NCBI GenBank assembly: GCA_030648515.1
Contig: JAUSHK010000001.1
Span: 9,688-73,687, forward strand
Source of the DNA: Candidatus Jorgensenbacteria bacterium
GTDB taxonomy: Bacteria > Patescibacteriota > Minisyncoccia > UBA6257 > GWB1-50-10
DNA length: 64,000 nt
Direction: 5' to 3'
A program made the position numbers and the translations under genes. The notes beneath the pieces were generated by a model. It saw only the letters and a program-made list of their open reading frames with translations. It had not been told where the DNA came from and did no database searches. Position 1 is the stretch's first letter; each line of letters starts with the position of its first letter. Shown here one piece after another: positions 1-16,008 of this stretch.

Positions 1-341
1 TGAAATATAATCGAAATTCTTCGGAAATTTCAAGGTAAGACTCCTGTTTTCCAGTGAAGGTTCTCCAATATACTAAGGGCTCTATTCCTTCTTCAGAAAA
101 ACGATAATATTCGGTTATTGGTTTTTTCCTAGCATGATGTGTGCAGAATCCAGGACGCCCTCCATCTATTCGTAGATCCCACCCGTGGTTTTCGAGCACA
201 TCCTTGACTTTGTCATTTGCGATTAATGCGGAAAAGTAAGTACCTCTATCAATGTCTGCAGGTGAATCCAAGAATTCAAAAACAGAAACCCATTCTGTTT
301 TCCCCAATTTATCTTCAATATTCCTTCTCAAATCAACAAAT
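1..341 (-). CDS. Hypothetical protein, 3'-partial (runs off window start); last gene of the HTH operon
   Basis: Own translation of the minus strand from the ATG at 339-341: MDTKDLTFVDLRRNIEDKLGKTEWVSVFEFLDSPADIDRGTYFSALIANDKVKDVLENHGWDLRIDGGRPGFCTHHARKK... It stays open to position 1. It is absent from the ORF track only because no stop falls inside the window. Confidence 0.5.
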
Positions 342-387
342 GTCAGGTCTTTTGTATCCATATGTATCCATAGGTTTTTTGGGAGAA

Positions 388-570
388 TCAAAAATGTAGA
401 CGAGTATCATTATTGGTACTACTTTGATCCTTTTTACTAATTTCGATAAGTAACTTGAAAAAATCAACAAGATTCTGAGCTATCTCGTGGGCCTTTTGTG
501 GAGCAAGCGCAGTGTTATATTCATCCAACATGACCTCTCGGAACTCTTGGATTAGTTCCTTGCTGATCAT
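388..570 (-). CDS. Small helical protein (60 aa), translationally coupled to the upstream HTH gene
   Basis: Its ATG (568-570) overlaps the TAA of the HTH ORF as ATGA. No recognisable domain. Confidence 0.5.
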   Translation of the reverse strand: MISKELIQEFREVMLDEYNTALAPQKAHEIAQNLVDFFKLLIEISKKDQSSTNNDTRLHF

Positions 571-875
571 TAAGCAGACGATATGTCTTGTGGGTCGGTT
601 TGTAAAGCATCAAGCTCCTGGGGTGTGTGGCGCTCTCTCTGCGCACGGAGAGACGCTATAAGGTCAGTAAAAAGGGCTTCTACGGGTACTTCATACAGAA
701 GGGAGAGGCGGATAACACTCACGATATTCGGGAGCGACGTTCCGTTTTCCCAGCGGGAGAGGAGAGCGGTGTCTTTGAGACCCAATTTGGCTGTGACTTC
801 CTTTTGGGAGAGGCCATTCTGCAGCCGGCAGAGCTTCAAGGCATTCGGAATGCTTTTGTATGTTTGGTAGTTCAT
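570..875 (-). CDS. XRE-family helix-turn-helix transcriptional regulator
   Basis: HTH_XRE core LKLCRLQNGLSQKEVTAKLGLKDTALLSRWENGTSLP. The track ORF starts at 1007, but its first 44 codons overlap a terminator hairpin and look non-protein-like. The start at M45 (873-875) is preferred; the start remains uncertain. Confidence 0.7.
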   Translation of the reverse strand: MNYQTYKSIPNALKLCRLQNGLSQKEVTAKLGLKDTALLSRWENGTSLPNIVSVIRLSLLYEVPVEALFTDLIASLRAQRERHTPQELDALQTDPQDISSA

Positions 876-978
876 GGAATCAGGATAGCGTGAGCGGGAG
901 GGAGGGCGTAAGACGGGAACTATTGCCGTTTTTGGCAACCAAAGTTCGGGTCCTATCCCCTTGTAGGCACAGGACAAA

Positions 979-1004
979 CAAAAAAGCCTCATTTTATTGA
1001 GGCT
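979..1004 (-). terminator. Rho-independent terminator after the AbiEii-like gene
   Basis: Minus strand reads GAGCCTCAATAAAATGAGGCTTTTTT. Confidence 0.45.
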
Positions 1005-1496
1005 CATTTGACTATCTAGTCAGCTGGCTAGATGGGATGAGTTTCGAATGACGAACTGGGCAAGTTGCTTTGATGAGCCGGAGAAAAGTTTAGAGGTAAT
1101 GCGGGGTTTGCTCGGTTCATGAGTTTAGGGTAGCAGGAGGAAAATACAGAAGAAAGTATGGGGTTTGTGTTAGAAATGACAAGTCACATTTCAATAGGCT
1201 CATCACTGTAAGCTAAACTTTGAGGACAATAGTGCTACGTCTTTCCCATTATTTCTTTTCTCCAAAGAACATAAAATCTTCTTCTCCGTCTCTGGCGTCC
1301 AATATATTTTCAACTTTTCTCTCGCTCTCGGGATAAGAGATTCTGTGATAACAAGCCTCTTTCTGAATCGTCAAATTTGCGAATATTGGCGCAAATTACT
1401 TCATCAATATCCAGTATCTTACTGTCAATTATGTTCATACATATTTGATTCCTATTCAAAATTGAGAACTATCTTAATCTGCTATGAGATATTATT

Positions 1497-2927
1497 TCAA
1501 TATTTTGTATCCACATAGTATCCGTGCCTGCCTCCGCAAGGATAGCCGTTTTTGTCCTTGTGTTTTCTTATGCTGTTGTTTTGCTTGCTTTTTGTAAATT
1601 TTTTTCCGCAATAACTGCATTGATAAATATATTTCGGCCCAAACGTTGAACGTCTTGGTTTTCTTGTTCCGCGTCGACGCGGGGCAGCAGTTGGCCTATT
1701 TGGGTCAAACAAATATGGATTTTCTGGCTTTTCGCCGGCTTTAGATAGTTCTATCGGAAATTGTGGCGTAAACTTTTCGTCCGTGTTTTGTATTGACTCG
1801 ATTTTCGCTGCCACAAAACATCTGATGCCAGGTCGGTTTTCCCCGCCACTTCTGTTAAATACATAGAAATATTCTTGCTCCGCGCCATCTTTCCTTTGTA
1901 AATATTTTAATGAATACGGCTCGACTATTCTGTCCGAACCTTTGTAGCGGACTTTTAAAAGAGTTTGTTCTCGTCCTGCTTTCATTATTGGCTCTCTCAA
2001 TTCGGGGCTAAAATAGGCAAATTGCGCAAAGCCGTTATCAGGATAAAAGCCGAACAGCACCTCTAAATCAGCAATAAATAAATTTATCGCTTCATCCACA
2101 CCAAACAAAAATTGTTTTGTGCATATAACAGTTTTGGACCAGAACTCCTTAAAATAATCAAACGGCATTTTGCTTAGAATATTTTTCAAAATATGCGGAT
2201 TTCTTCCAAAAATGGTTTTTTTCACAAAAGTTCTGACAACCTCTTCCTTGTTCAATTCACCTCCCAAAAGTTTTATTGAATACGCATAATCAAACAAATC
2301 GGGGGCATGCTGTCTCTGTAAAAGACACTTCAATTTCGTGGCAATAATTTCTTCAAGTTTCATGCATCGAATTTTGCAGGCAACTTTGTCCGCATCCGAA
2401 TATGGATGGATTAGGTCAACAGTTTGAACTGGTAAAAGGACTTTATCAAAACGGGTAATATCCATTGAAATTTTGATTTTAATATGCTCCGAATTTCCAT
2501 AAAAATCTTTAAAATAAATTCGTGCTTCATAAACGCGCAACCCAGGTATTGGAGCTTCGGTAGCCGAAAACTTTTCTTCAATTTTATTTTGTTCTTTTAT
2601 AAAGGAAACGCCAGCTTTTTCCTGAATAAAATCGCATACTTTATTTATTTCATCAAGCAAGACAACTTGGGTTATATCGCCAGGGATTCCAAAATCCAAA
2701 TCGGACGAAAAACGAGTGTTTTTGAAGTATCCCTTGCGCAAAGCATTCCCGCCCTTCAAAAATATGGTGTTTTTTAGACTGCTGGTTGTAAAAATCCCAA
2801 AAATCAACCATCCAAAAACATAATCCCGCTCAACATTTGCTTCGTGGATTTCGAATTCTTTTGCCTTAGTTTTAATTTCATTCTTGGAAATCATGACAGA
2901 ACCTGGTATTTTCCATATTTGAATCAA
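1497..2927 (-). CDS. AbiEii/DUF1814-type nucleotidyltransferase fused to a WYL-like domain and a C-terminal zinc ribbon
   Basis: N-terminal LKGGNALRKGYFKNTRFSSDLDFG matches the AbiEii NTase signature (hLKGGtAL...RfSeDiDf). Around residues 310-390, RIVEPYSLKY...EYFYVF...IRCFVAAKIESIQ fits the WYL-domain pattern. After a basic linker (RRRGTRKPRRS) the C-terminus reads YQCSYCGKKF...H...PCGGRH. Confidence 0.7.
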   Translation of the reverse strand: MIQIWKIPGSVMISKNEIKTKAKEFEIHEANVERDYVFGWLIFGIFTTSSLKNTIFLKGGNALRKGYFKNTRFSSDLDFGIPGDITQVVLLDEINKVCDFIQEKAGVSFIKEQNKIEEKFSATEAPIPGLRVYEARIYFKDFYGNSEHIKIKISMDITRFDKVLLPVQTVDLIHPYSDADKVACKIRCMKLEEIIATKLKCLLQRQHAPDLFDYAYSIKLLGGELNKEEVVRTFVKKTIFGRNPHILKNILSKMPFDYFKEFWSKTVICTKQFLFGVDEAINLFIADLEVLFGFYPDNGFAQFAYFSPELREPIMKAGREQTLLKVRYKGSDRIVEPYSLKYLQRKDGAEQEYFYVFNRSGGENRPGIRCFVAAKIESIQNTDEKFTPQFPIELSKAGEKPENPYLFDPNRPTAAPRRRGTRKPRRSTFGPKYIYQCSYCGKKFTKSKQNNSIRKHKDKNGYPCGGRHGYYVDTKY

Positions 2928-3007
2928 ATACTTTTTTACTACAAAAATTACTAATCAGAGCTAAAAAAGCAATCACAAAATATGGCAGCTGATGTATGAA
3001 TCTAAAT

Positions 3008-3808
3008 TTACATAATAACTGAGGATAATTCCTTTCCTCGTTGGATCAATCTTTTTACGTCTTCCTCTTGAATATTCTCTTTTGGATGGGCGCAGTAATT
3101 TCCAATTTTAAATAGGCTCTCTAATTCAGATTTCTGGATTGCATTTATGACTGTTTCCTGCTCCAATGTATTAAGAATATCACTTACGCCAGGCTTCTTT
3201 TTTGACGGAGGATTGACCCCAATCGTTAAGGAGCGACTATTCACTACGGTTAACAAATGTCTTTCAAGCGCAACACGGGCAATTACCCCGCTTGCTCTAA
3301 TAGCAACTTCAATGAGTGGATAAGATTTCAATATTTCTTCGGCACTGGTGAATTCATCACAAGCAACGTTGAAACTAAGTTGAGTAACAACTTCAAGCTC
3401 TCTTGAACAAACTTCCTCCGCTAAACTTAAAAGTAATGAGCGAGCTCTCTGAAAGTATTCGGAAAAAAGGCCAAAACATTCTTCTCCTTGCACAAACGGT
3501 GGCCACGTAATTTTCTTCCCATAGCAATTAGTTCCAATATTAATATATTGTTGAATATCTGTAAATGATCTCCGACCTTGTTTATCATTTTTGGAACTAT
3601 CATAACAACCATCGAATTCTTCGACGCCGGAAAAGTGCTGTTGGACCAATAATTCTCTTACTCCGCGATACCATCTCTGTCCCTTAACAGATAAATCTGG
3701 CTGAACAATCTCGCCCTTACTTAATCTTTTGGCCAAGCTAAAGACCTCATTTGCTAATTCCTCTAATTCTTGAGCTCTTTTTGTTAATTTTATCAACTTT
3801 GATTTCAT
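3008..3808 (-). CDS. DUF4145-domain protein, co-operonic partner of the AbiEii-like gene
   Basis: C-terminal ~95 aa (AIRASGVIARVALERHLL...SDILNTLEQETVINAIQKSELESLFKIGNYCAHPKENIQEEDVKRLIQRGKELSSVI) follows the DUF4145 pattern R..LE..L...L...I..L...I...L..iGN..AH...i..ed. It lies 80 nt upstream of the AbiEii-like gene on the same strand. The N-terminal half is unrecognised. Confidence 0.55.
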   Translation of the reverse strand: MKSKLIKLTKRAQELEELANEVFSLAKRLSKGEIVQPDLSVKGQRWYRGVRELLVQQHFSGVEEFDGCYDSSKNDKQGRRSFTDIQQYINIGTNCYGKKITWPPFVQGEECFGLFSEYFQRARSLLLSLAEEVCSRELEVVTQLSFNVACDEFTSAEEILKSYPLIEVAIRASGVIARVALERHLLTVVNSRSLTIGVNPPSKKKPGVSDILNTLEQETVINAIQKSELESLFKIGNYCAHPKENIQEEDVKRLIQRGKELSSVIM

Positions 3809-4004
3809 ATAGCCTCGATGACTGATTTTTGCATATTCTTAAATCTTCAAGATTACCTTGATTTTGAGAAAATGTCTCAGACTACTAATGAGTTATAATT
3901 ATGAGGATGCCAAACGCGCAGTGGAGTTCTCATCCACAATTCGTTTGTAAGCATTTAAAACAATATCCATAACCATTCTGTTGGCCAGATGCAGTCTTAA
4001 TATA

Positions 4005-4038
4005 TTGAGGAATTATATTCTTTCTAATTTATTCCTCA
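4005..4038 (-). terminator. Hairpin terminator overlapping the stop of the PHP-ATPase gene
   Basis: TGAGGAAT...ATTCCTCA inverted repeat followed by a T-run on the minus strand. Confidence 0.45.
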
Positions 4039-6920
4039 GGAAAACTGTACTTTTGTTCGCGCTTCTGAAATGCTTCCTTACCACCCTCTAAAATCTCACA
4101 CACATGTTGCCGAATGCCCTTTCGGAACAAAATTGCCGGCTGCTGTGTTGCGCTCAGTTCAAAGGCGTTTTCGAGAGCACCCGAAACGTACTCGAAGTGA
4201 TACTTTTTGTTATCTCTGCCGACCTCTTGCCCAGACTGATTTGCAACGACAGACTCTTCTCCGTCTGCTCCGACAACAAGGTTAGGGTTATGTGTTACAA
4301 TAATAATTTGTCGCTTGAGCTTCTTCTTCTTTAAGAATTCTACTAGATCATCGTAAACAGAACGGTTGTCGAGATCGTCCTCGGGTTGGTCAAGTAGAAT
4401 CGGCCATTCTTCGTTGCTCAAGTTAATGAGTAATTGCAAAAGAACAAGCCCCTTCTTGCCGGGCGACATTTTATCGAGAGAGTCATTTTTGTAAAAAATC
4501 CGGAAATCAAGGTAAAAATAATCATCGAGCAACTTTGTCACAGCATCCTTTGCTTGGCGATTTTTCACTGTGTTAATGGTACCGTCAATCAGTCCATCAA
4601 ACATAGCAGTGATATTTGTTAAATGTTTTGTTGGATCATATCGATATACAAATTCTTCGCCCCATTCCGCCTCAGCGATAACTCGTTTAAGGTCGCGCTT
4701 ACTGAGAAATTCCTTGATTACATTTGAATTAAATGAGTCGTCATTAAAGCCGACATGCACGCCCAAGGTAATATCACCGAACCTGCTTTCAAATGTTTTA
4801 AACTCATTCCGTATTCCTTCATATTTGGCGATGATCTGCTTATAGGAGTCAATTATTGCTTTGGCTTTCTTCTCATGGGAAGTCTTTTTTGCTTTGAGAT
4901 TGTTTCTCTTAATAGCGATCTCATTCAGCTTCTGCTGTTCTTTATTGATGGCGTCGGATTTCTGCCGCAATTCTGATTGCAATTGAACTTTTGCAAGCAA
5001 CGGACCAAGTTCTGCGTTGATTCTTGTTAATTCGAAATTGTGTGTTGTGATTTTTGCATCAACTGCATTAAGCAAATTGGAAATAGCTGATTCCACTGTT
5101 GGCGCAAAGGAATCCAAAGCTTTTAGCTCCGCCTTGAATTTTGCCTTTATGTCTGTGTCATTGAGATAGGTTTCGTATTCACTGGTAATGGACTGTATTC
5201 CGGTGACTTGTTCAAGTATAATTGAGCGCAAATTCCTGACCATCTTTTTATCTTCTTCAAGATGAGAAACTTGAGCATTTATAGTTTTTTCTTTGTCTAC
5301 CAATTCTCCATACTGTATGATCTGTGCATCAGAAAGTCCGGATTTTAATTTTATCTCATCTGCCTGTTTCTGTAGTGTTTGAATGTAATTTTCAATACCT
5401 TTCTCGTCGCCAGTCTGTTTTAGTTCTTCTTCTATCTTTTTAATATCATCCTGATCAGAGAATAGCTCATTAATCGCGGTAGGAATGGACTTCGCCGTTG
5501 TCTTGATTTCTCGAACCGTTTCCTGATATTTCTCGTTAATAGTTAGATCTTGCAGAATTACACTTAAAACGAATTCGTTAAGGGCCTCACGGCTGCGAAT
5601 ATTGGATTCCGATAGTGTATTAAGATACCGTTGAGGAATATAAAGTATTTTCCGTTCTTTTGATTCGCCTTCTGCGGAATCCGTTGGTGCATTCAATAAC
5701 GTGCGTTGACCATCCAGCCAGGTAACTTCAAAATTAAAACCCGGTGAATTGTCGAAGTCGTATTGTACCGGAATTCCGCTGTCCACCATCCGATTTTTTA
5801 CTTCCTGTTTATCAATGGTTTTTGCTATATAGTAAAGCAAAAGCGACTTGCCAGTTGATTTACCACCGATGATGGTCGTGAGATTTTGATTAATTTCAAT
5901 CGGATCACTACCGAATTTTATATCACTACTATTATCTAAAAAACGCACTTTATCAATAATGAAATATGACTTCTTTTCCTCAGGTCTCTGCAACCCAACA
6001 AAAATGCGTTGTTCCGGCTCATAGATGATCTGTTTTAGGCCCTCAAAAGTGGGGTCTGCTTTAATCCACAAATAATTGCCATCCTGATCGCTTCTACCAT
6101 AATCATGCAACGACCTTGCATCAGAACTGATATGGCAACAAAATTTTGCAACCAATGACGTGTTGCTTTTTATGTATTCAGAAATCACTATTGATGATCT
6201 GTGATGTTGAGACTGAAGAAGGTTTATCTTTTGATGATTAAAAATATCAGCCAAGTGAGTTCTATCCATACTCGTTCTTGCCTGAAATAATCCGTTAGTG
6301 CTGTTGCAGTGAGGGTAAATTACTATGCCATTGTTTCTTTTTGCCTCATCGAGAATATCCTTGATGTCTGCGGAAGTGGTGGTAAGCACTCCATTGGTAT
6401 TTGTACGGTTATTAATATTAAATTTCACTAAAAACGCATGGATTCCATCAGAAAAAGTTGATTTTTGATAAAGCTTGTCCGGGAAGAACAAGAGCATGTG
6501 AATCCCTTGGCAGTTTATCTCAACACCGGGGATTACTTTGCATTGCGTCCTTTTGGAGTACTCGATAAAGGTATCAAGCAATTGCTCATCAAAATAGTTG
6601 TGATCCGTGATACCGATGCATTCAAGCCTTGGGTGAAAGACATCCAAATATGCAAAAAGGTTGCGAACGTAATTCTGACAGCGCTCGTTTTTCGCAAGAT
6701 TGGCATCGTTGAAGTACGTTTTTGAATCGTACAAAATGGCATTTGTTTCGCCACCAACTTTGCCAATGAATTGCTGCCATCCAGCGAGATTCACCTCCTT
6801 AATACTTTTGTAGTATTGGTCAAGCGACACATAATCATCGTCCAAGATTGTTTGCACATGCAAGTCCCACTGTCGCCAAACTGATCCTTTTGGATATGGA
6901 AAATTATTCATAAGATTCAA
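4029..6920 (-). CDS. PHP-domain phosphoesterase fused to an SMC/Rad50-like ABC ATPase (PplA/TrlF-like)
   Basis: N-terminal PHP motifs DLHVQT, GITDHN, IPGVEI, HMLLFFP. Then Walker A GGKSTGKS, a coiled coil of several hundred residues, a signature-like SPGKKG, Walker B ILLDQPEDDLD and an H-loop VTHNP. It sits 79 nt downstream of hsdMS on the same strand. Confidence 0.7.
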   Translation of the reverse strand: MNLMNNFPYPKGSVWRQWDLHVQTILDDDYVSLDQYYKSIKEVNLAGWQQFIGKVGGETNAILYDSKTYFNDANLAKNERCQNYVRNLFAYLDVFHPRLECIGITDHNYFDEQLLDTFIEYSKRTQCKVIPGVEINCQGIHMLLFFPDKLYQKSTFSDGIHAFLVKFNINNRTNTNGVLTTTSADIKDILDEAKRNNGIVIYPHCNSTNGLFQARTSMDRTHLADIFNHQKINLLQSQHHRSSIVISEYIKSNTSLVAKFCCHISSDARSLHDYGRSDQDGNYLWIKADPTFEGLKQIIYEPEQRIFVGLQRPEEKKSYFIIDKVRFLDNSSDIKFGSDPIEINQNLTTIIGGKSTGKSLLLYYIAKTIDKQEVKNRMVDSGIPVQYDFDNSPGFNFEVTWLDGQRTLLNAPTDSAEGESKERKILYIPQRYLNTLSESNIRSREALNEFVLSVILQDLTINEKYQETVREIKTTAKSIPTAINELFSDQDDIKKIEEELKQTGDEKGIENYIQTLQKQADEIKLKSGLSDAQIIQYGELVDKEKTINAQVSHLEEDKKMVRNLRSIILEQVTGIQSITSEYETYLNDTDIKAKFKAELKALDSFAPTVESAISNLLNAVDAKITTHNFELTRINAELGPLLAKVQLQSELRQKSDAINKEQQKLNEIAIKRNNLKAKKTSHEKKAKAIIDSYKQIIAKYEGIRNEFKTFESRFGDITLGVHVGFNDDSFNSNVIKEFLSKRDLKRVIAEAEWGEEFVYRYDPTKHLTNITAMFDGLIDGTINTVKNRQAKDAVTKLLDDYFYLDFRIFYKNDSLDKMSPGKKGLVLLQLLINLSNEEWPILLDQPEDDLDNRSVYDDLVEFLKKKKLKRQIIIVTHNPNLVVGADGEESVVANQSGQEVGRDNKKYHFEYVSGALENAFELSATQQPAILFRKGIRQHVCEILEGGKEAFQKREQKYSFPEE

Positions 6921-6999
6921 TTTGTTATCTGCCTAAAAAGTGGTTTTATCAAAAAGTTGTACTTTTTATTTCTTTGATTATCTTGATGAGCCTATTTCC

Positions 7000-9429
7000 T
7001 CATTCGCCCCAAACTTCTGCGATTTTTGATTTAATCTTTTGCTCAGATAATTCAATGATTCTACGATTACCGTCAACGAAATCTTGCTCTTTTTCAATCT
7101 CAGTCAGAATTCTTAATTGTTCGTCAACTGTTGGTTTCGGGATATTAATGTTGATGCAATCATCAATACTAAAAGAAACATTTGATGTGCCATACATGAG
7201 ATTAGTGAAAAGATTGTCTTTTTCTTGAGAAAATAAATAGTAGAAGAATTTAGGAATTACTTGTTTATTTTTTGGCAACATTGCCATCAATATGTTACCA
7301 ACAGCAAACTTCCCCTCTACATAATAGATTCTCTTGAGAGTTGCTTTTCCGTGCCCAGCCGATGAAATCAACGGAATGATAATTGCCTTTTCATCAAACT
7401 GATAAGAATCTGAAGTAGAATAAGATTCTCCAGTGGTAACCAGAGGATATTTACCGGGTTTTGTTTTCTCTATCGGAGTTAGTCCCTTCTCCAATTGGAA
7501 ATAATTTCCCAGCTTCACTTTTTGCCACGTAGGATCAATTTTTATGTAGGGACAGTATTCGGTCAAAACACGCTTTGCGCTTCTAATTAAGTGATAATCA
7601 TGTTTGAAACTCACTTGAACAGACTGCGGAGGTATCGGAATTTCTAGTTTAATTAAATCATTGAAATTTAATGTTTGTCTAACAGCTCCTGCCGCTAACA
7701 AATTGATTTGTTCAAGCCCTTTTCTGCTTTTTAGCAAGTAATAAAGATACTCTGGTACCAATTGGGAGCCATCTTTTATTTTAAAGACCGTGTACATGGG
7801 GCTTACTAAGCCCCGCATCCCATTAGAGTTGATTGCTATGGATCCAACATTTATACGGGCGGGGTTGTAGACAAAATTATTTACATCAACCACCTTATAG
7901 TTATCAAGATTTCTTGAGCTAACTGTTTCATTAAAATAGTCGTCTGAGTTAATTAGTCCCTGCTCATTAGAAACTGAGAAAACAATAGGACTCTCCAGAT
8001 TGTTTTTCTTTTTTACTTCTTCAAGATGTTCAGCAAGAGGTTCCAGTGGAAAGGCAAGATCGCGAGATACGCCAATTTTATATTTATTACCTCTTAAAAT
8101 ATAATCCCCATCGCTTTTAATATCTTCTTTCGTTACACCGAAGACGGAAGCATGATGTGAAAACCAACTTTTAATTTTGGTTGGACTATTTTCTGTTACT
8201 TCCTTATAGGAACATATAGTTTCCAGGACTTTTGGAATGTCGTTTTTCTCTATAACTCTTTTTCTATTCCCACCCTCAAATCCATCAAAGCTTATGTCTG
8301 CAAATAAAATCCAAGGGGATAATTTTGCCAGCTGCTTATCAAAAAAAAGTATGCTTGTTTTAACGTCGGCGTATGGCTTAAAAACTCCAGGATGTAAAGA
8401 TACTACAGCATAAACTATGTCATCTTTAATAAGCATTTTCCTAAGGGCAATATATGCAGCGGAATTCTTATTTGATACTACTCCGTCTGGTACAATTACA
8501 GCACCCTTACCCTTTGAATTAAGATGTTCAGTAATATAATCAACAAATAGTATTTCTGAACGATTTGCCCGTACCATGAAGCGTTTATGCGGACGGATGC
8601 CGCCCTTTGGTGTCATGAATGGAGGATTTGCCATAATGACATCAAAACGCTCATTCCATTTTTCTTCGCTTGTGAGTGTGTCGTATTCGTGAATATTAGG
8701 GCTTGGGAAGCCGTGTAGGTACATATTAACGCGGGACAGCTTTACCATATCCGGCGAAATATCATAACCTGTCAAATTGGTCATCAAGCGCTTTTTCTCG
8801 TCAGGAGAAAGAGGCCGGTCTTTGGTTGCCTTCAAAATATGCTTGTAGGCAGAGACTAAGAATCCGGCCGTGCCGCATGCGGGGTCAAGGATGGTCTCAC
8901 CTTTTTTCGGTTCAACTACCTCAACAATGAAATCAATAATGTGCCGCGGCGTACGGAATTGTCCAGCGTCGCCCTGCGATCCAAGAACCGAAAGCAGATA
9001 TTCAAAAGCGTCTCCTAAATTTTCGCTATGATCATAAGTAAACCCATTGATCTCTTTCAGAAATAGGTTGAGCGTTTCCGGGTCACGGAATGGGAGGAAG
9101 GCATCTTTGAAAATGTCTCTGAAAAGTTGTTGTAGGTGCGGATTTTGAGACATCTTGGTGATTGCCTCACTATAGAGATTGAGCCTATCATGTCCGCCTA
9201 GTTTTGGATCCATTAATTTGTTCCAGGCATATTTCTCATAACCATTCGTAAAAAATTGTGCCTTGCCTCTGGGCAACGACATGGATTCCTTATCCATATC
9301 ATCCATGAATTTGTAAATCAGCGCAGTAGTTATTTGCTCAACCTGTGCCTTTGGATCGGGAATTTTACCAACAAGAATATCCCGCGCTGAATCAATCTTC
9401 TTTTTTATCTCTTGGGTCAACATGGTCAC
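7000..9429 (-). CDS. hsdM: Type I R-M fused HsdM-HsdS subunit (N6-adenine methyltransferase plus two target-recognition domains)
   Basis: The methyltransferase half has GTAGFL (SAM binding) and NPPF. The C-terminal ~400 aa carries two HsdS-like TRDs, each ending in a conserved spacer (LEIPIPPQ...; NINIPKPTVDEQLRIL). Its ATG overlaps the hsdR stop (ATGA). Confidence 0.8.
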   Translation of the reverse strand: MTMLTQEIKKKIDSARDILVGKIPDPKAQVEQITTALIYKFMDDMDKESMSLPRGKAQFFTNGYEKYAWNKLMDPKLGGHDRLNLYSEAITKMSQNPHLQQLFRDIFKDAFLPFRDPETLNLFLKEINGFTYDHSENLGDAFEYLLSVLGSQGDAGQFRTPRHIIDFIVEVVEPKKGETILDPACGTAGFLVSAYKHILKATKDRPLSPDEKKRLMTNLTGYDISPDMVKLSRVNMYLHGFPSPNIHEYDTLTSEEKWNERFDVIMANPPFMTPKGGIRPHKRFMVRANRSEILFVDYITEHLNSKGKGAVIVPDGVVSNKNSAAYIALRKMLIKDDIVYAVVSLHPGVFKPYADVKTSILFFDKQLAKLSPWILFADISFDGFEGGNRKRVIEKNDIPKVLETICSYKEVTENSPTKIKSWFSHHASVFGVTKEDIKSDGDYILRGNKYKIGVSRDLAFPLEPLAEHLEEVKKKNNLESPIVFSVSNEQGLINSDDYFNETVSSRNLDNYKVVDVNNFVYNPARINVGSIAINSNGMRGLVSPMYTVFKIKDGSQLVPEYLYYLLKSRKGLEQINLLAAGAVRQTLNFNDLIKLEIPIPPQSVQVSFKHDYHLIRSAKRVLTEYCPYIKIDPTWQKVKLGNYFQLEKGLTPIEKTKPGKYPLVTTGESYSTSDSYQFDEKAIIIPLISSAGHGKATLKRIYYVEGKFAVGNILMAMLPKNKQVIPKFFYYLFSQEKDNLFTNLMYGTSNVSFSIDDCININIPKPTVDEQLRILTEIEKEQDFVDGNRRIIELSEQKIKSKIAEVWGE

Positions 9430-11939
9430 ATGTACGAGTTAAGTGAAACGTAATCCTTTACGTAATCCGGCACTACCTCAATCCATTTATTGAGTTCTCG
9501 TAAATCAGATAGAGTAAGCTTTGGGTTCGTCGCAAGCCTGGGATATTCTCCTCTCTCAATAATATCGCGTATCTCATTATCGGTTATGTATGCTTTAAGA
9601 TAATTTTTGAGTGGCAAAACATATTTACTCTCAGGTTTATGGATTGCAATAAATTTCTCGAATTCTTCTTCCAAGAGCTCATCTTTAGACTTGAAGCGAA
9701 CAATTCCTCCAAGAATTTTCTCAATAAACTCCCGCAAACTTATACGACGGTCAGATTTTATTGCTTTCCTCAGTTTTTCTAGATTGAAGTAGTCCTCTGG
9801 TTTATCAAATATTTCACCACGAACGTAATCCTCAACAGTCTCCAAATCACCTTCTTCATACTTTTTTTGAATGAACGGATCATTCTTGACCGTTGATTCG
9901 AATTTCTCAAACAGCTTCCTATCAATCTTCATCCCCTCAAACCCAATAGTCTTTTCAGCGAAGGTTTTCAGCGGGTCTGGTTGGAAGACTGAAACTTCAT
10001 TAATGGGCACACCGTCCACGTCACCGCCTCCTGCTCCTGTAATCGCGGGCAATCGGATGATTTCGTCATAGTTGTACTTTTCCTCGAAATACTCACAGTT
10101 CGCGAAAAAGTCAAAAAGCTTGAACTTTTCTTTCTCTACCTTCGCTTCTTGAATGCTATCGGCATTCTTTTCTTTGTGCACGAAGGAATATCTGCGGGTG
10201 CCGCGCCCTTTAATTTGAATAAAATCTGTCGGCGAAAAGATCGGGCGCATCATGCAAAGATTCAGAATATCCTCGCAGTCGTATCCGGTGGTCATCATGC
10301 CTACGGTGACGCATACCCTCGTCTTGCTGGACTGGTACCCCTCCAAGAATCTTGTTTGCCCATTGAGATTGTTATTGGCAAAGCTTACCGTGAACTGCTG
10401 AGCATCCGGGATGTTTGATGTAATCTGTACTGCAAAATCGGAATTGTATTTTCCTGGATACAACAGGTCTACAAACTGGTTTAGAATCTGGGTAATTTTC
10501 GATGCATGTTTTTGACTCACACAAAATACGATGCTCTTGCCGATTTCTCCGGTAATCGGGTCTCGTAAGGCATTTTCGAAAAAGGTTTTGCAAAAAATCT
10601 GGTTGGTTTTATCCGAGAAAAACTTCTTCTCAAAGTCGGTGTAGAAAAAGATTTGCTCTTCTTCTCTGCCTTCTTCTGTTTCTACCATGAGAGCATAGCC
10701 CTTTTCCGAGAGAAGTTCAGTTGTGATCTCTGTTCTTGCGTCGGCCACAATTGGATTAATCAGATAACCGTCTTTTACTCCATCAAGGAGGCTGTAGTGG
10801 AACGTCGGCTCACCAGATTCGCAGCCAAATGTTTTATAGGTATCCAAAAGCTGCCTGCGTTCCCATGCTCTTGGGTCCCTGTCATTGAGTTTCTCAGGAT
10901 CAATGCCTTTCAGGTAATTTTTGGGAGTTGCGGTAAGTCCCAGCTTGAAGCCTACGAAATATTCAAAAACTGCACGACTGTTACCGCCGATAGAGCGGTG
11001 GGATTCATCGGAAATGAGGAGGTCGAAATCTGTTGGAGAGAAAAGATGTTGATACTTGTTATTGAAGGAGAGGCTTTGAACGGTAGAAACAACAATCTCC
11101 GCTTTGCGCCAATCATCACGATTTTCTTTGTAGATAACCGTCGTGTAATCCTCGGCGAGCCATTTTTTGAAATTCTTCCATGCTTGTTGTTCCAGTTCAA
11201 TCCGGTCAACCAGGAATAGAACTCTCTTTGCATTGCCCGTCTTGAGAAATAACTTGATTATGGCGGCTGAAACAAGCGTTTTACCCGTTCCGGTTGCCAT
11301 CTCAAAAAGGTAGCGGTCATGACCCTTGGCCGCCGATTCTTGGAGTGCGTGGATGGCGCGAAGCTGGTAGGGGCGGAGAAACTTCAAACCCTCCGTCTCA
11401 GCGAATTCCTTCCGTTCCGCCTCGCTCGCCCAACGGGGATCATTTTTATATTCCAGCTTCTGCGTGAGGACAATATAATCCTCTTCGATCTTCTCGCCTG
11501 CAAGCCGCTTGTGGTCAGGTTTAAACTGCTCAACATGCACAAGGGAGTCAGGAGTGGGAAAAGTTACAATGACCGCAGGATTGCCGTGTTCCAGATCCCA
11601 AAAGTAATGGAGGTTGCCATTGGAAAGAATGACAAAGCGGACATTTAGGGATTGAGCATAGCGCCGGGCTTGCTCTTTACCATCCAAAGGATTTTTGTCC
11701 TCAGATTTGGCTTCCAATACGGCATACGGAAATCCATTTTTGTCTAAGAGCAAAAAATCAACATACCCATTTTTTGTTTTTTCAAAATCATTTCCAAGGG
11801 CATCGATGTCCTTTTTAGTCAGCTTAACATTGCTTTCCAACGCGACATTCGCCTTGCCGTCTTCATCATCAAAAAACCTCCAGCCGGCTTTCTGGAGAAT
11901 GTTGTTGATTTTTATGCGAGCTCTGGCTTCTTTTTTCAT
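9426..11939 (-). CDS. hsdR: Type I restriction enzyme HsdR (endonuclease/helicase subunit)
   Basis: N-terminal PD-(D/E)xK nuclease (DFLLLD...AVLEAKSED). SF2 helicase motifs MATGTGKT, DESH and GLTATP. Confidence 0.85.
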   Translation of the reverse strand: MKKEARARIKINNILQKAGWRFFDDEDGKANVALESNVKLTKKDIDALGNDFEKTKNGYVDFLLLDKNGFPYAVLEAKSEDKNPLDGKEQARRYAQSLNVRFVILSNGNLHYFWDLEHGNPAVIVTFPTPDSLVHVEQFKPDHKRLAGEKIEEDYIVLTQKLEYKNDPRWASEAERKEFAETEGLKFLRPYQLRAIHALQESAAKGHDRYLFEMATGTGKTLVSAAIIKLFLKTGNAKRVLFLVDRIELEQQAWKNFKKWLAEDYTTVIYKENRDDWRKAEIVVSTVQSLSFNNKYQHLFSPTDFDLLISDESHRSIGGNSRAVFEYFVGFKLGLTATPKNYLKGIDPEKLNDRDPRAWERRQLLDTYKTFGCESGEPTFHYSLLDGVKDGYLINPIVADARTEITTELLSEKGYALMVETEEGREEEQIFFYTDFEKKFFSDKTNQIFCKTFFENALRDPITGEIGKSIVFCVSQKHASKITQILNQFVDLLYPGKYNSDFAVQITSNIPDAQQFTVSFANNNLNGQTRFLEGYQSSKTRVCVTVGMMTTGYDCEDILNLCMMRPIFSPTDFIQIKGRGTRRYSFVHKEKNADSIQEAKVEKEKFKLFDFFANCEYFEEKYNYDEIIRLPAITGAGGGDVDGVPINEVSVFQPDPLKTFAEKTIGFEGMKIDRKLFEKFESTVKNDPFIQKKYEEGDLETVEDYVRGEIFDKPEDYFNLEKLRKAIKSDRRISLREFIEKILGGIVRFKSKDELLEEEFEKFIAIHKPESKYVLPLKNYLKAYITDNEIRDIIERGEYPRLATNPKLTLSDLRELNKWIEVVPDYVKDYVSLNSYM

Positions 11940-12257
11940 AATAATACGGTGTAGCTTTTTGGGTTCAACTATGTCCGGTTAAGACTCTCTTCAAGGTATC
12001 CGTCAAGCTCAAATGTCAGTTTACACCGATAGTCCGCAATTATCAAAACACTTGGCATATCTTGAATTTGAGTGCCATGAACGGCACACGTAGGCAGAAA
12101 GATAATACTCACAAAAAATATAGAAATTGTTTTTGAATGTACGCAATAGAATCCTATAAGTAAAGCAAAAAATAAGGGTTAGACTTTAAAAATCAAGATA
12201 TAAAAATGGAAGCACTAATAATTGGATATCTGAACAATCTATTCGCGATGCACGAAA

Positions 12258-14133: not shown

Positions 14134-14830
14134 TTACATACCACTTTTGATTGTTGATTTGTAATACTCTGTGAAATGATCTGACGCACAACTGCACTTT
14201 TTTATTTCCTGGGCTGCTGCTGAAAGTTTTTCGAGAAGGTTTACTGTTTTTCCCGTGTTGCTGCGGAATATCTCAAGCACACTCTTCATCGATTCCGGTT
14301 GCATTGAGATTGTGCTTGGCACACCGACGTCGTAATCGGTCACGGTGGCAATAGCTCCGTAACAGATACCAAGCTCACGGGCAAAGTAGCACTCCGGGTA
14401 CTGCGTCATGTTGACGATATCCCCGCCCACATAAGCATACATTTTGCTCTCGGCAATAGTTGAGAACCTTGGGCCTTGAATGACAACTACGGTGCCGTGA
14501 GCTTGGCATGGCATCTTCATCATTCCAAGTTCACGGGCAATTATGCTTCGCACATGTTCGCAGTAGGGCCTTGCCATCGGCAGGTGGATGAGCTGGCGGT
14601 CAATATCAAAACTGTCATCTCTTCCCCATGTGAGATTGATGAATTGGTCCGGAATCACGAATGTACCCGGTTCAATCTCTTTCCGAAGGCTGCCCACAAC
14701 ACACGTTCCGATGACGTGCCGCACTCCAAGCGACTTCAGTGCGGCAAGATTCGCTTTGTATGGCACCTTATGTGGCGGGTGAAGGTGGCAACCGCCGAAT
14801 ACTATATCCGGCAGCTTTCGGAAAACGTGC
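14134..14830 (-). pseudogene. mtnP: 5'-truncated S-methyl-5'-thioadenosine / purine nucleoside phosphorylase gene
   Basis: The product aligns to MTAP/PNP family 2 from about residue 68 of human MTAP onward (HVIGTCVVGSLR...IPDQFI...GPRFST.AES...GGDIVNMT...ELGICY...ATVTDYD). The ~65 N-terminal residues, including the phosphate-binding GxxGGSG loop, are absent. The reading frame dissolves at ~14790-14830, exactly where the recombinase remnant begins. Confidence 0.55.
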
Positions 14831-15936
14831 GAAAGGGACTCAAAGAGAAGCTTGCACAGGGATGGCTCCCCACAAGACCGCCGCTAGGTTATATGACTAT
14901 TGGCGAGAGTGGGCACAAGGTGCACGTCATTGATCCCGTAAAAGCTCCGCTTGTGCGGAAAATGTTTGAATTCTATGCAACGGGTGAGTATTCTCTCAAA
15001 AAACTAATGGACGTGATGTATAAAAACGGATTGCGTGCCCGCAGCGGCAAGATGGTTGTGAAATCAAGAGTGGCAACCCTTTTGAGCGACCCCTTCTATA
15101 TTGGCAAAATTCGGTACAATGGTTCCGTCCACCCCGGATCGCATGAATCGCTCATTTCAAAAGAACTATATGAGAGCGTGCAGCGAAGACTTCTTGGCAA
15201 AGCGATTCCCCGATTCAGAAAACATTTTCCGTTATTCAAATCGTTGATTCGGTGCGCCATTTGCTCTGGTCTGATAACCTGGGAGGTGAAGAAAGGACAT
15301 TGGTACGGGCATTGCAACGGGTACAGGGCTTGTACCGCGCGAAAGTATGTAAGACAGGAATCCATTGAGCAACAACTGATACCCTATTTTGATAAAATTG
15401 TGATTAGAAGCGAACGCTTGGTTAATTGGATTAAGCAGGGATTGAAGGAGAGTCATCATGACCGAATCGCCTATAGCTCGAGTGCGAGGGATGAGCTTGG
15501 CAAACGTTATGAGGCAACGCAGAAGCGATTGGATATGCTCTACGACGACAAACTGGATGGTAAGATATCAGAAGATTTCTACCAAAGGAAATTGGCCCAA
15601 TACACAGCCGAAAAAGAAGAAATCTTGAGTGGGCTCAAACGCCATGACGCTGCCAATACTAGCTATTATGAACTCGGAGCGTGCATCCTTGATCTTGCCT
15701 ATAGAGCAAGAGCCATGTTTACAGACCCAAATCGCGCCACCGTGGATCGTAGGGCGCTACTGAACGTTATTTTTTCGAACCTGACGCTTAAGGACGATAA
15801 ACTCAACGTTTTTTACACCAAAGCGTTCGAAATAGTGTCGGAAGTGGTTCCGCTGTGGAATGAGAAATTCGAACCTTCAGAAACCCGCGCCATTAAAGGG
15901 GAAAATGCAATTTTAGGTACCGCGCGTCCTGTTATG
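14770..15936 (+). pseudogene. Large serine recombinase remnant lacking the N-terminal catalytic domain
   Basis: The ORF 14476-15996 shows serine-recombinase homology only from ~14775, starting within the E-helix (ATAEYYIRQLSENVRKGLKEKLAQGW). It continues through the recombinase domain, a zinc ribbon (CAICSG...CNGYRAC) and a coiled coil. The first ~100 codons of the track ORF are antisense to mtnP and are not coding. The catalytic Ser region is absent. The 3' end reads through into tRNA-Gln. Confidence 0.6.
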
Positions 15937-16008
15937 CTGGGAGACCAGGATTCGAACCTGAATTCACGGCTTCAAAGGCCGCTGTCCTACCATTAGACGA
16001 TCTCCCAA
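15937..16008 (-). tRNA. tRNA-Gln(UUG)
   Basis: Manual fold: U1:A72 acceptor stem (TGGGAGA/TCTCCCA), G73 discriminator, D-stem GTCT/GGAC, anticodon loop CUUUGAA, T-arm TCAGG-TTCGAAT-CCTGG. U1:A72 with G73 matches the E. coli tRNA-Gln identity elements. Confidence 0.8.

Follow-up and report, generated by a model that had tools for sequence, protein, structure and literature searches.

A 64,000-nucleotide (nt) stretch of Candidatus Jorgensenbacteria DNA (assembly GCA_030648515.1, contig JAUSHK010000001.1, positions 9,688 to 73,687 of the forward strand; hereafter the window) carries, on its minus strand, the gene of a nucleotidyltransferase (NTase) of the AbiEii/DUF1814 toxin family, with the gene of a DUF4145 protein immediately upstream. 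We consider it probable that the NTase is a self-contained, single-polypeptide member of this toxin family, which holds a WYL domain, a linker and a zinc finger in cis, and that the DUF4145 gene codes for a separate effector candidate of the HEPN type.

The two open reading frames (ORFs) span 1497..2927 (476 amino acids, aa, from a TTG) and 3008..3808 (266 aa). The greater length of the first had been adopted in an earlier note on this DNA; however, the true start is the ATG at 2894, since 45 of 45 aligned homologs begin at that methionine and the alignments with other loci at the nucleotide level set in at the same position. The complete coding sequence (CDS) is 1497..2894 (465 aa plus the stop codon), and residue numbers below refer to the 465-aa product. 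It is separated from the DUF4145 gene, which lies on the same strand, by a gap of 113 nt with no overlap. The 465-aa protein is identical to an NCBI protein of a Candidatus Jorgensenbacteria metagenome-assembled genome (MAG), and the same 465-aa and 266-aa proteins are recorded together on one contig of such a MAG.

The N-terminal part of the protein has the AbiEii/DUF1814 signature that the earlier note had recognized. Pfam AbiEii (PF08843) matches residues 41-238 with E=8e-24 and the PADLOC AbiEii model PDLC02304 matches the protein at 3.8e-48. An AlphaFold2 model was computed from the family alignment (A1; 46 sequences, namely the window protein and 45 homologs), with a mean predicted local distance difference test score (pLDDT) of 78.9. 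In it, residues 1-283 form the NTase core with its helical domain, residues 297-309 a helix and residues 311-374 a beta unit of five strands; a disordered basic linker (393-415) then leads to a small beta unit (421-464). The region assigned to the catalytic core and helical domain (residues 1-296; 2007..2894) shows the DUF1814/AbiEii/MenT fold in addition to the PF08843 match, as expected of an AbiE-type NTase, and the closest structural relatives of the model are bona fide toxins. Residues G48, G49, R61, S63, D65, D67, D145, K187 and R194 are invariant across the 46 sequences. Four of these, R61, S63, D65 and D67, lie in the active-site loop RFSSDLD (R61-D67; 2694..2714), which contains the catalytic DxD and aligns with the MenT4 sequence RFSTDLDF. 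The Arg-x-Ser spacing of this loop is that of R76/S78 in MenT3, where the roles of both residues have been described and auto-phosphorylated S78 neutralizes the toxin (PMC11375011). S63 is equivalent to this S78. All the catalytic residues are thus retained and of toxin type, and the enzyme is predicted to be active.

The roughly 170 additional C-terminal residues to which the earlier note had drawn attention are conserved over their whole length in A1. They begin with the WYL region (residues 297-380; 1755..2006), modelled as a helix followed by a five-strand Sm-like barrel and containing the sequence RIVEPYSLKY ... EYFYVF ... IRCFVAAKIESI. The Pfam WYL model does not match the window NTase at E<=1. 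The C-terminal fragment of the protein matches a PADLOC WYL model at 4.3e-4, as well as positions 315-392 of the 396-position PADLOC AbiEii model PDLC02317 at 8.4e-8. A phmmer search with this fragment against 1.84 billion representatives returned 462 matches (representative clusters at 50% identity), and 8 of 10 divergent matches scanned reach the Pfam WYL gathering score, with 22.5-41.7 bits. The predicted barrel superposes on solved WYL domains (Sm/SH3-like, five strands). Among the WYL signature residues, R322, E325, Y327 and Y342 are invariant in A1 and R358 is conserved in at least 90% of the sequences. Altogether, these data agree with the assignment of a WYL domain made in the earlier note.

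The next segment (residues 381-420; 1635..1754) is a basic linker rich in proline and arginine and predicted to be disordered; pLDDT values fall below 50 at residues 393-415, and the R/K-rich segment varies in length in A1. The C-terminal unit (residues 421-465; 1500..1634) is a putative zinc-binding module with the pattern C-x2-C-x15-H-x7-C at 1536-1619 (CSYCGKKF…H…C). Its four candidate ligands, C426, C429, H445 and C453, are invariant in the 46 sequences, and the model renders it as a small beta unit with pLDDT 82-91. Profile matches to this unit are below threshold (zf-C2H2, E=0.07; weak C2H2 or zinc-ribbon). The invariant ligands and the beta unit favor the C2HC-type finger that had been proposed to follow the basic linker.

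Proteins made of the WYL and zinc-finger parts alone were also considered. Most short matches turned out to be collinear fragments of the full-length family, and one, located at a contig edge, does not establish a free-standing form. Another belongs to a locus (L156, 1518-3426) in which an AbiEi_4 gene is followed by a 225-aa AbiEii gene and then by an overlapping ORF of 141 aa with WYL and zinc finger. This ORF, placed directly after AbiEii in an AbiEi operon, was classed as split or frameshifted and not as a free-standing form. The L156 layout shows that the C-terminal module can exist as a separate polypeptide.

Loci of the NTase family were collected by scanning one genome per species (GTDB; 71 loci), and loci of the 266-aa protein family by scanning metagenomes (80 loci, 38 of which have at least 1.5 kb of sequence downstream). 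A hidden Markov model (HMM) of 50 homologs of the DUF4145 protein found no member at any of the 71 NTase loci; reciprocally, the NTase HMM found none at the 80 DUF4145 loci, including the 38 with room for an NTase gene. In blastn comparisons with other loci (60), the window aligns from 2894 to ~1497 and nowhere else. Upon all-versus-all clustering of ORFs lying within 3 kb, no conserved neighbor was found at the 71 NTase loci, nor did clustering reveal one for the DUF4145 protein, TrlF included. For the NTase, the clustering yielded only XRE-type helix-turn-helix (HTH) proteins, which occur at 17 of 71 loci with no fixed side or strand, together with serine recombinases (10) and integrases (5). 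Upstream of the NTase homologs, the ORFs fall into dozens of families that are unrelated to one another, among them PLD-like, DUF4238, Hypoth_Ymh, methylase, transporters and ribosomal protein S20. The earlier note had cast the DUF4145 protein as a replacement for AbiEi in a two-gene system and had proposed co-occurrence across genomes as a check. This idea does not survive: the adjacency recurs at none of the loci of either family, blastn homology does not extend beyond the NTase CDS, and DUF4145 was discarded as a conserved partner. Judging from these comparisons, the two genes are unrelated neighbors, side by side only through ordinary clustering within a low-GC defense island, and not a system. 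The case shows that adjacency in a single genome is no evidence of a system, as the DUF4145 partnership vanishes once genomes are compared.

Membership in AbiE also entails an upstream, usually overlapping AbiEi gene (COG5340, a winged HTH, wHTH, plus an antitoxin domain). The window has the DUF4145/HEPN gene in that place, and the statement that the upstream gene is not AbiEi was correct. Searches by phmmer and jackhmmer with two AbiEi queries found no AbiEi at any of the 71 loci, nor anywhere in the 64-kb window, and no antitoxin gene was found at any of the genomic loci examined (37-88% identity to the window NTase). Tightly spaced upstream ORFs were considered as hidden antitoxins and rejected, being mutually unrelated (Vut_1, M48 peptidase, RelA_SpoT, transglutaminase, no family). 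Also rejected was the XRE gene of the window as part of the unit, given its GC content of 0.51 versus 0.38 in the island and its distance of 489 nt. No tRNA gene adjoining the NTase or the DUF4145 gene was detected. A scan for promoters and terminators is uninformative on operon structure because its counts do not differ from those in shuffled sequence.

The 71 loci span Patescibacteria, Bdellovibrionales, Omnitrophota, Planctomycetes, Bacteroidetes, Proteobacteria, Actinobacteria and one Methanosarcinales MAG. Without exception, the top 120 clusters (at 90% identity) consist of full-length proteins; they are 68-88% identical to the window NTase, with a mean identity of 0.80 in the catalytic core. 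A set of relatives (L001-L058), which includes very distant phyla and an archaeal MAG (L007), aligns with 1497-2894 at 65-81% nucleotide and 62-88% protein identity and shows no homology in the flanks. Full-length relatives at about 40% identity, carried by plasmids of cultured Sinorhizobium and Sphingomonas, likewise come without an antitoxin gene. In one of these (L152, Sinorhizobium mexicanum plasmid pEmeITTGR7a), the solo NTase-WYL-zinc-finger gene is followed, 15 nt downstream, by the gene of a hypothetical protein of 248 aa that weakly matches DUF3800 (5410-6156), and the next genes include one for another protein with a nucleotidyltransferase domain. A phage genome collection and IMG/VR gave no match to the NTase or to the DUF4145 protein. 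As read from these alignments, the clade is large, strongly conserved and horizontally spread, mostly in the candidate phyla radiation (CPR)/Patescibacteria, with many other phyla represented.

The claim that the architecture had not been described has to be withdrawn. Makarova et al. (2014; PMC4012209) had included in their list the combination of a WYL domain with an "AbiGII-like nucleotidyltransferase (DUF1814)", and PADLOC model PDLC02317 effectively models the fusion, with a Rhizobium plasmid protein matching it end to end at 1.5e-198. This protein (Rhizobium sp. CB3090, WP_283060974) and a homolog from Thiodictyon (WP_100922825) are 26% identical to the window NTase over the full length and have a WYL domain detectable by Pfam together with the same CxxC…H…C tail. 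Both reside in canonical AbiEi-AbiEii operons, in which the genes overlap (Rhizobium) or lie 9 nt apart (Thiodictyon). The three-part architecture is thus old, and it is already classed with AbiE. Novelty is confined to the highly conserved, cross-phylum clade without an antitoxin gene, an absence that suggests self-regulation.

What this enzyme would do can be read from characterized relatives, from which we infer a tRNA target, gating by the WYL domain, regulation by phosphorylation and a role in defense. MenT toxins act on tRNA by modifying its acceptor stem (PMC7450476, PMC10435456). By homology with MenT and AbiEii, the window NTase most likely adds nucleotides to tRNA 3' ends and so blocks translation. 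The WYL domains of DriD, CapW and PafBC bind single-stranded DNA (PMC10853764, PMC11662680, PMC11804915); by analogy, the NTase would stay off until its WYL domain binds a ligand of nucleic-acid type, probably with help from the basic linker and the finger. Together, the three parts could provide nucleic-acid sensing or substrate binding. Auto-phosphorylation at S78/T65 neutralizes MenT3 and AbiEii (PMC11375011; bioRxiv 10.64898/2026.01.19.700257), and the same reaction at the retained S63 is a plausible off-switch. Cis auto-inhibition, S63 auto-phosphorylation, factors acting in trans, or a lack of toxicity are all possible ways in which members of the solo clade stay harmless. We tentatively envisage the solo clade as a toxin or immune sensor that consists of one protein and is gated by a ligand: aided by the basic linker and CCHC finger, WYL might directly switch a MenT-like tRNA NTase on or off post-translationally, perhaps through auto-phosphorylation of S63 under control in cis, though we hold this to be well short of an even chance. 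If true, this would be a case of WYL control over an enzymatic effector and not over a transcription factor, and of a DUF1814 toxin that does without an antitoxin gene. An autonomous solo clade would also provide a direct handle on what an effector-attached WYL senses. Tools that define AbiE as an AbiEi-AbiEii pair would be expected to miss this clade, which is common among CPR bacteria, a group with a poorly known defense repertoire.

Several observations weigh against a self-contained toxin. The relatives paired with AbiEi carry the same WYL and zinc-finger module, which therefore is not simply a substitute antitoxin. The AbiEi search used two queries only, and very divergent antitoxins could escape it. 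In the window itself, the common strand, the 113-nt interval and the lack of a detected terminator between the genes make co-transcription with the DUF4145 gene possible. Amino acid identity of about 70% across phyla is unusually high for a toxin or defense gene and could point to a non-defense role, and many NTase homologs adjoin housekeeping genes.

An alternative interpretation of the solo clade builds on the last two points. The protein would be an orphan or domesticated enzyme, either neutralized in trans (by a protein of AbiEi/MenA type or a host kinase or phosphatase, encoded elsewhere) or non-toxic and engaged in WYL-regulated modification or repair of RNA or tRNA 3' ends. The identity levels of the best 120 clusters and of the catalytic core fit this account, as do the housekeeping genes flanking many homologs (such as ribosomal protein S20, PMSR, transporters and a racemase), the lack of homologs on the phage and viral contigs searched and the finding that AbiE of Streptococcus agalactiae gave no phage protection in Escherichia coli (bioRxiv 10.64898/2026.01.19.700257). 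However, toxin-type catalytic residues are all kept, the nearest structural relatives are bona fide toxins, the distribution is patchy as in horizontal gene transfer, often amid defense and mobile genes and here in a low-GC island, and no AbiEi-like ORF is found anywhere in the 64-kb window. On balance, we regard the orphan enzyme as unlikely and retain the self-contained toxin-family member as the preferred interpretation.

The DUF4145 protein (3008..3808, minus strand) is a helical protein of 266 aa. Pfam DUF4145 (PF13643) matches residues 166-255 (about 3041-3313) with 24.6 bits and E=2.6e-5, just over the cut-off of 23.1, in line with the C-terminal DUF4145 assignment of the earlier note. 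DUF4145 belongs to the HEPN superfamily (PMC3710099), and in RAZR/PD-T7-4, a defense protein encoded by a single gene, it is the RNase domain responsible for catalysis (PMC13017515). An AlphaFold2 model of the protein (pLDDT 93.4) is all-helical, and a fold search with it matched HepT toxins (5yep, 7ae2, 8xdj). The sequence RVALERH (R178-x5-H184; 3257..3277, minus strand), of which R178, E182, R183 and H184 are invariant in 50 sequences, is a candidate HEPN Rx4-6H RNase motif, as defined in studies that also supply the R146/H154 precedent of RAZR (PMC13017515, PMC3710099). The protein thus combines the profile match, the four-helix HEPN fold and the Rx4-6H motif by which HEPN proteins are recognized; R171, R178, E182, R183, H184, C239 and H241 are invariant among the 50 homologs. 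A PDB sequence search with the family profile gave only chance-level matches, and a PADLOC scan of the protein gave none. Because of the HEPN fold, the invariant R-x5-H and the RAZR precedent, the protein looks like a candidate effector of RNase type and not like an antitoxin.

As to a dedicated toxin-antitoxin (TA) or abortive-infection (Abi) module formed by the two genes in this genome, in which, for example, the NTase would neutralize the HEPN RNase by nucleotidylylation, the way MntA acts on HepT, or the antitoxin replacing AbiEi would be the HEPN protein, we judge it very improbable, for the shared strand, short gap, missing terminator prediction and like composition (GC 0.378 vs 0.376), the HepT-like fold, the well-known theme of HEPN-NTase pairing (PMC3710099) and the presence, upstream of the NTase at two other loci, of a different gene from the HEPN family (Hypoth_Ymh) are outweighed by the zero co-occurrence in both directions, the end of homology at the NTase gene boundaries, the absence of a conserved neighbor of either family elsewhere, the DUF1814 type of the NTase, which is not the minimal MNT that pairs with HepT, and the lack of gene overlap, as against 8 nt in real AbiEi-AbiEii pairs.

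The genes farther upstream conform to the defense-island context described in the earlier note. Between the HEPN gene and a type I restriction-modification (R-M) operon lies the gene of a 963-aa ATPase of the TrlF family (4029..6920, minus strand), an AAA-like protein related to Ppl, with an N-terminal PHP-like region (NF045780, 6e-142, above cut-off; PADLOC Ppl, 5e-19); it is a further candidate for single-gene defense. PHP-ATPases of this kind also occur near NTase homologs in two other loci (L013, L037). The R-M genes, also on the minus strand, code for an HsdM-HsdS fusion of 809 aa (7000..9429; Pfam N6_Mtase, 2.8e-53, and Methylase_S) and for HsdR (9426..11939; ResIII and HSDR_N). The fusion joins the type I methyltransferase with two HsdS domains in one polypeptide, and its gene overlaps that of HsdR by 4 nt. 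GC content is 0.376-0.395 in the NTase, DUF4145, TrlF and HsdMS genes, versus 0.46 in the rest of the window. Positions 1-12000 form a low-GC block (0.40 vs 0.46 elsewhere), with the XRE gene (570-1007) at 0.51. These values suggest that the island was acquired by horizontal transfer and has its left edge between 1007 and 1497. Near NTase homologs, too, defense and mobility genes recur (PLDc_2, DUF4238, Hypoth_Ymh, TrlF-like ATPases, recombinases).

Two other features of the window were noted. An ORF at 14476-15996 (plus strand) has a Pfam Recombinase domain, as in large serine recombinases, and at its 3' end it runs into a tRNA-Gln gene of the other strand (15936-16007, minus); an integration site or a boundary of the island may lie here. 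A 60-aa ORF at 388-570 (minus strand) shares 37-45% identity, at its N-terminus, with the beginnings of ORFs near NTase homologs in three loci (L007, L009, L010).

Comparison with known systems places the NTase next to AbiE/MenAT, in which DUF1814 toxins are paired with COG5340 antitoxins (type IV, now type VII). It shares with them the R-x-S loop and its auto-phosphorylation serine; however, no AbiEi/MenA accompanies it in the window or in the 71 loci, and the characterized AbiEii and MenT1-4 proteins lack the approximately 170 C-terminal residues of WYL, linker and zinc finger. The AbiEi-paired AbiEii-WYL fusions have the same succession of NTase, WYL, linker and CxxC...H...C finger, ending in GY.VDT.Y. 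They differ from the window clade (at least 37% identity to the query) in that they sit in AbiEi-AbiEii operons, whereas the clade is solo and its WYL domain has diverged below the Pfam WYL model. Regulators of the wHTH-WYL-WCX type (DriD, PafBC, CapW, BrxR) are transcription factors with a DNA-binding wHTH; in the window protein, WYL is fused straight to an enzymatic effector and there is no HTH. HepT-MntA, the HEPN-MNT type VII TA system, resembles the locus in that a HEPN-fold protein adjoins an NTase gene of the polymerase-beta superfamily, but the window NTase is of DUF1814 type, the gene order is reversed and the two do not co-occur across genomes. Finally, the 266-aa neighbor is like RAZR/PD-T7-4 in its C-terminal DUF4145/HEPN domain, invariant Arg...His and stand-alone gene. 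Its N-terminal 165 residues are modelled as helical, without the Cys4 zinc finger or any Cys cluster; lacking this N-terminal finger and any PADLOC match, the protein is not RAZR itself.

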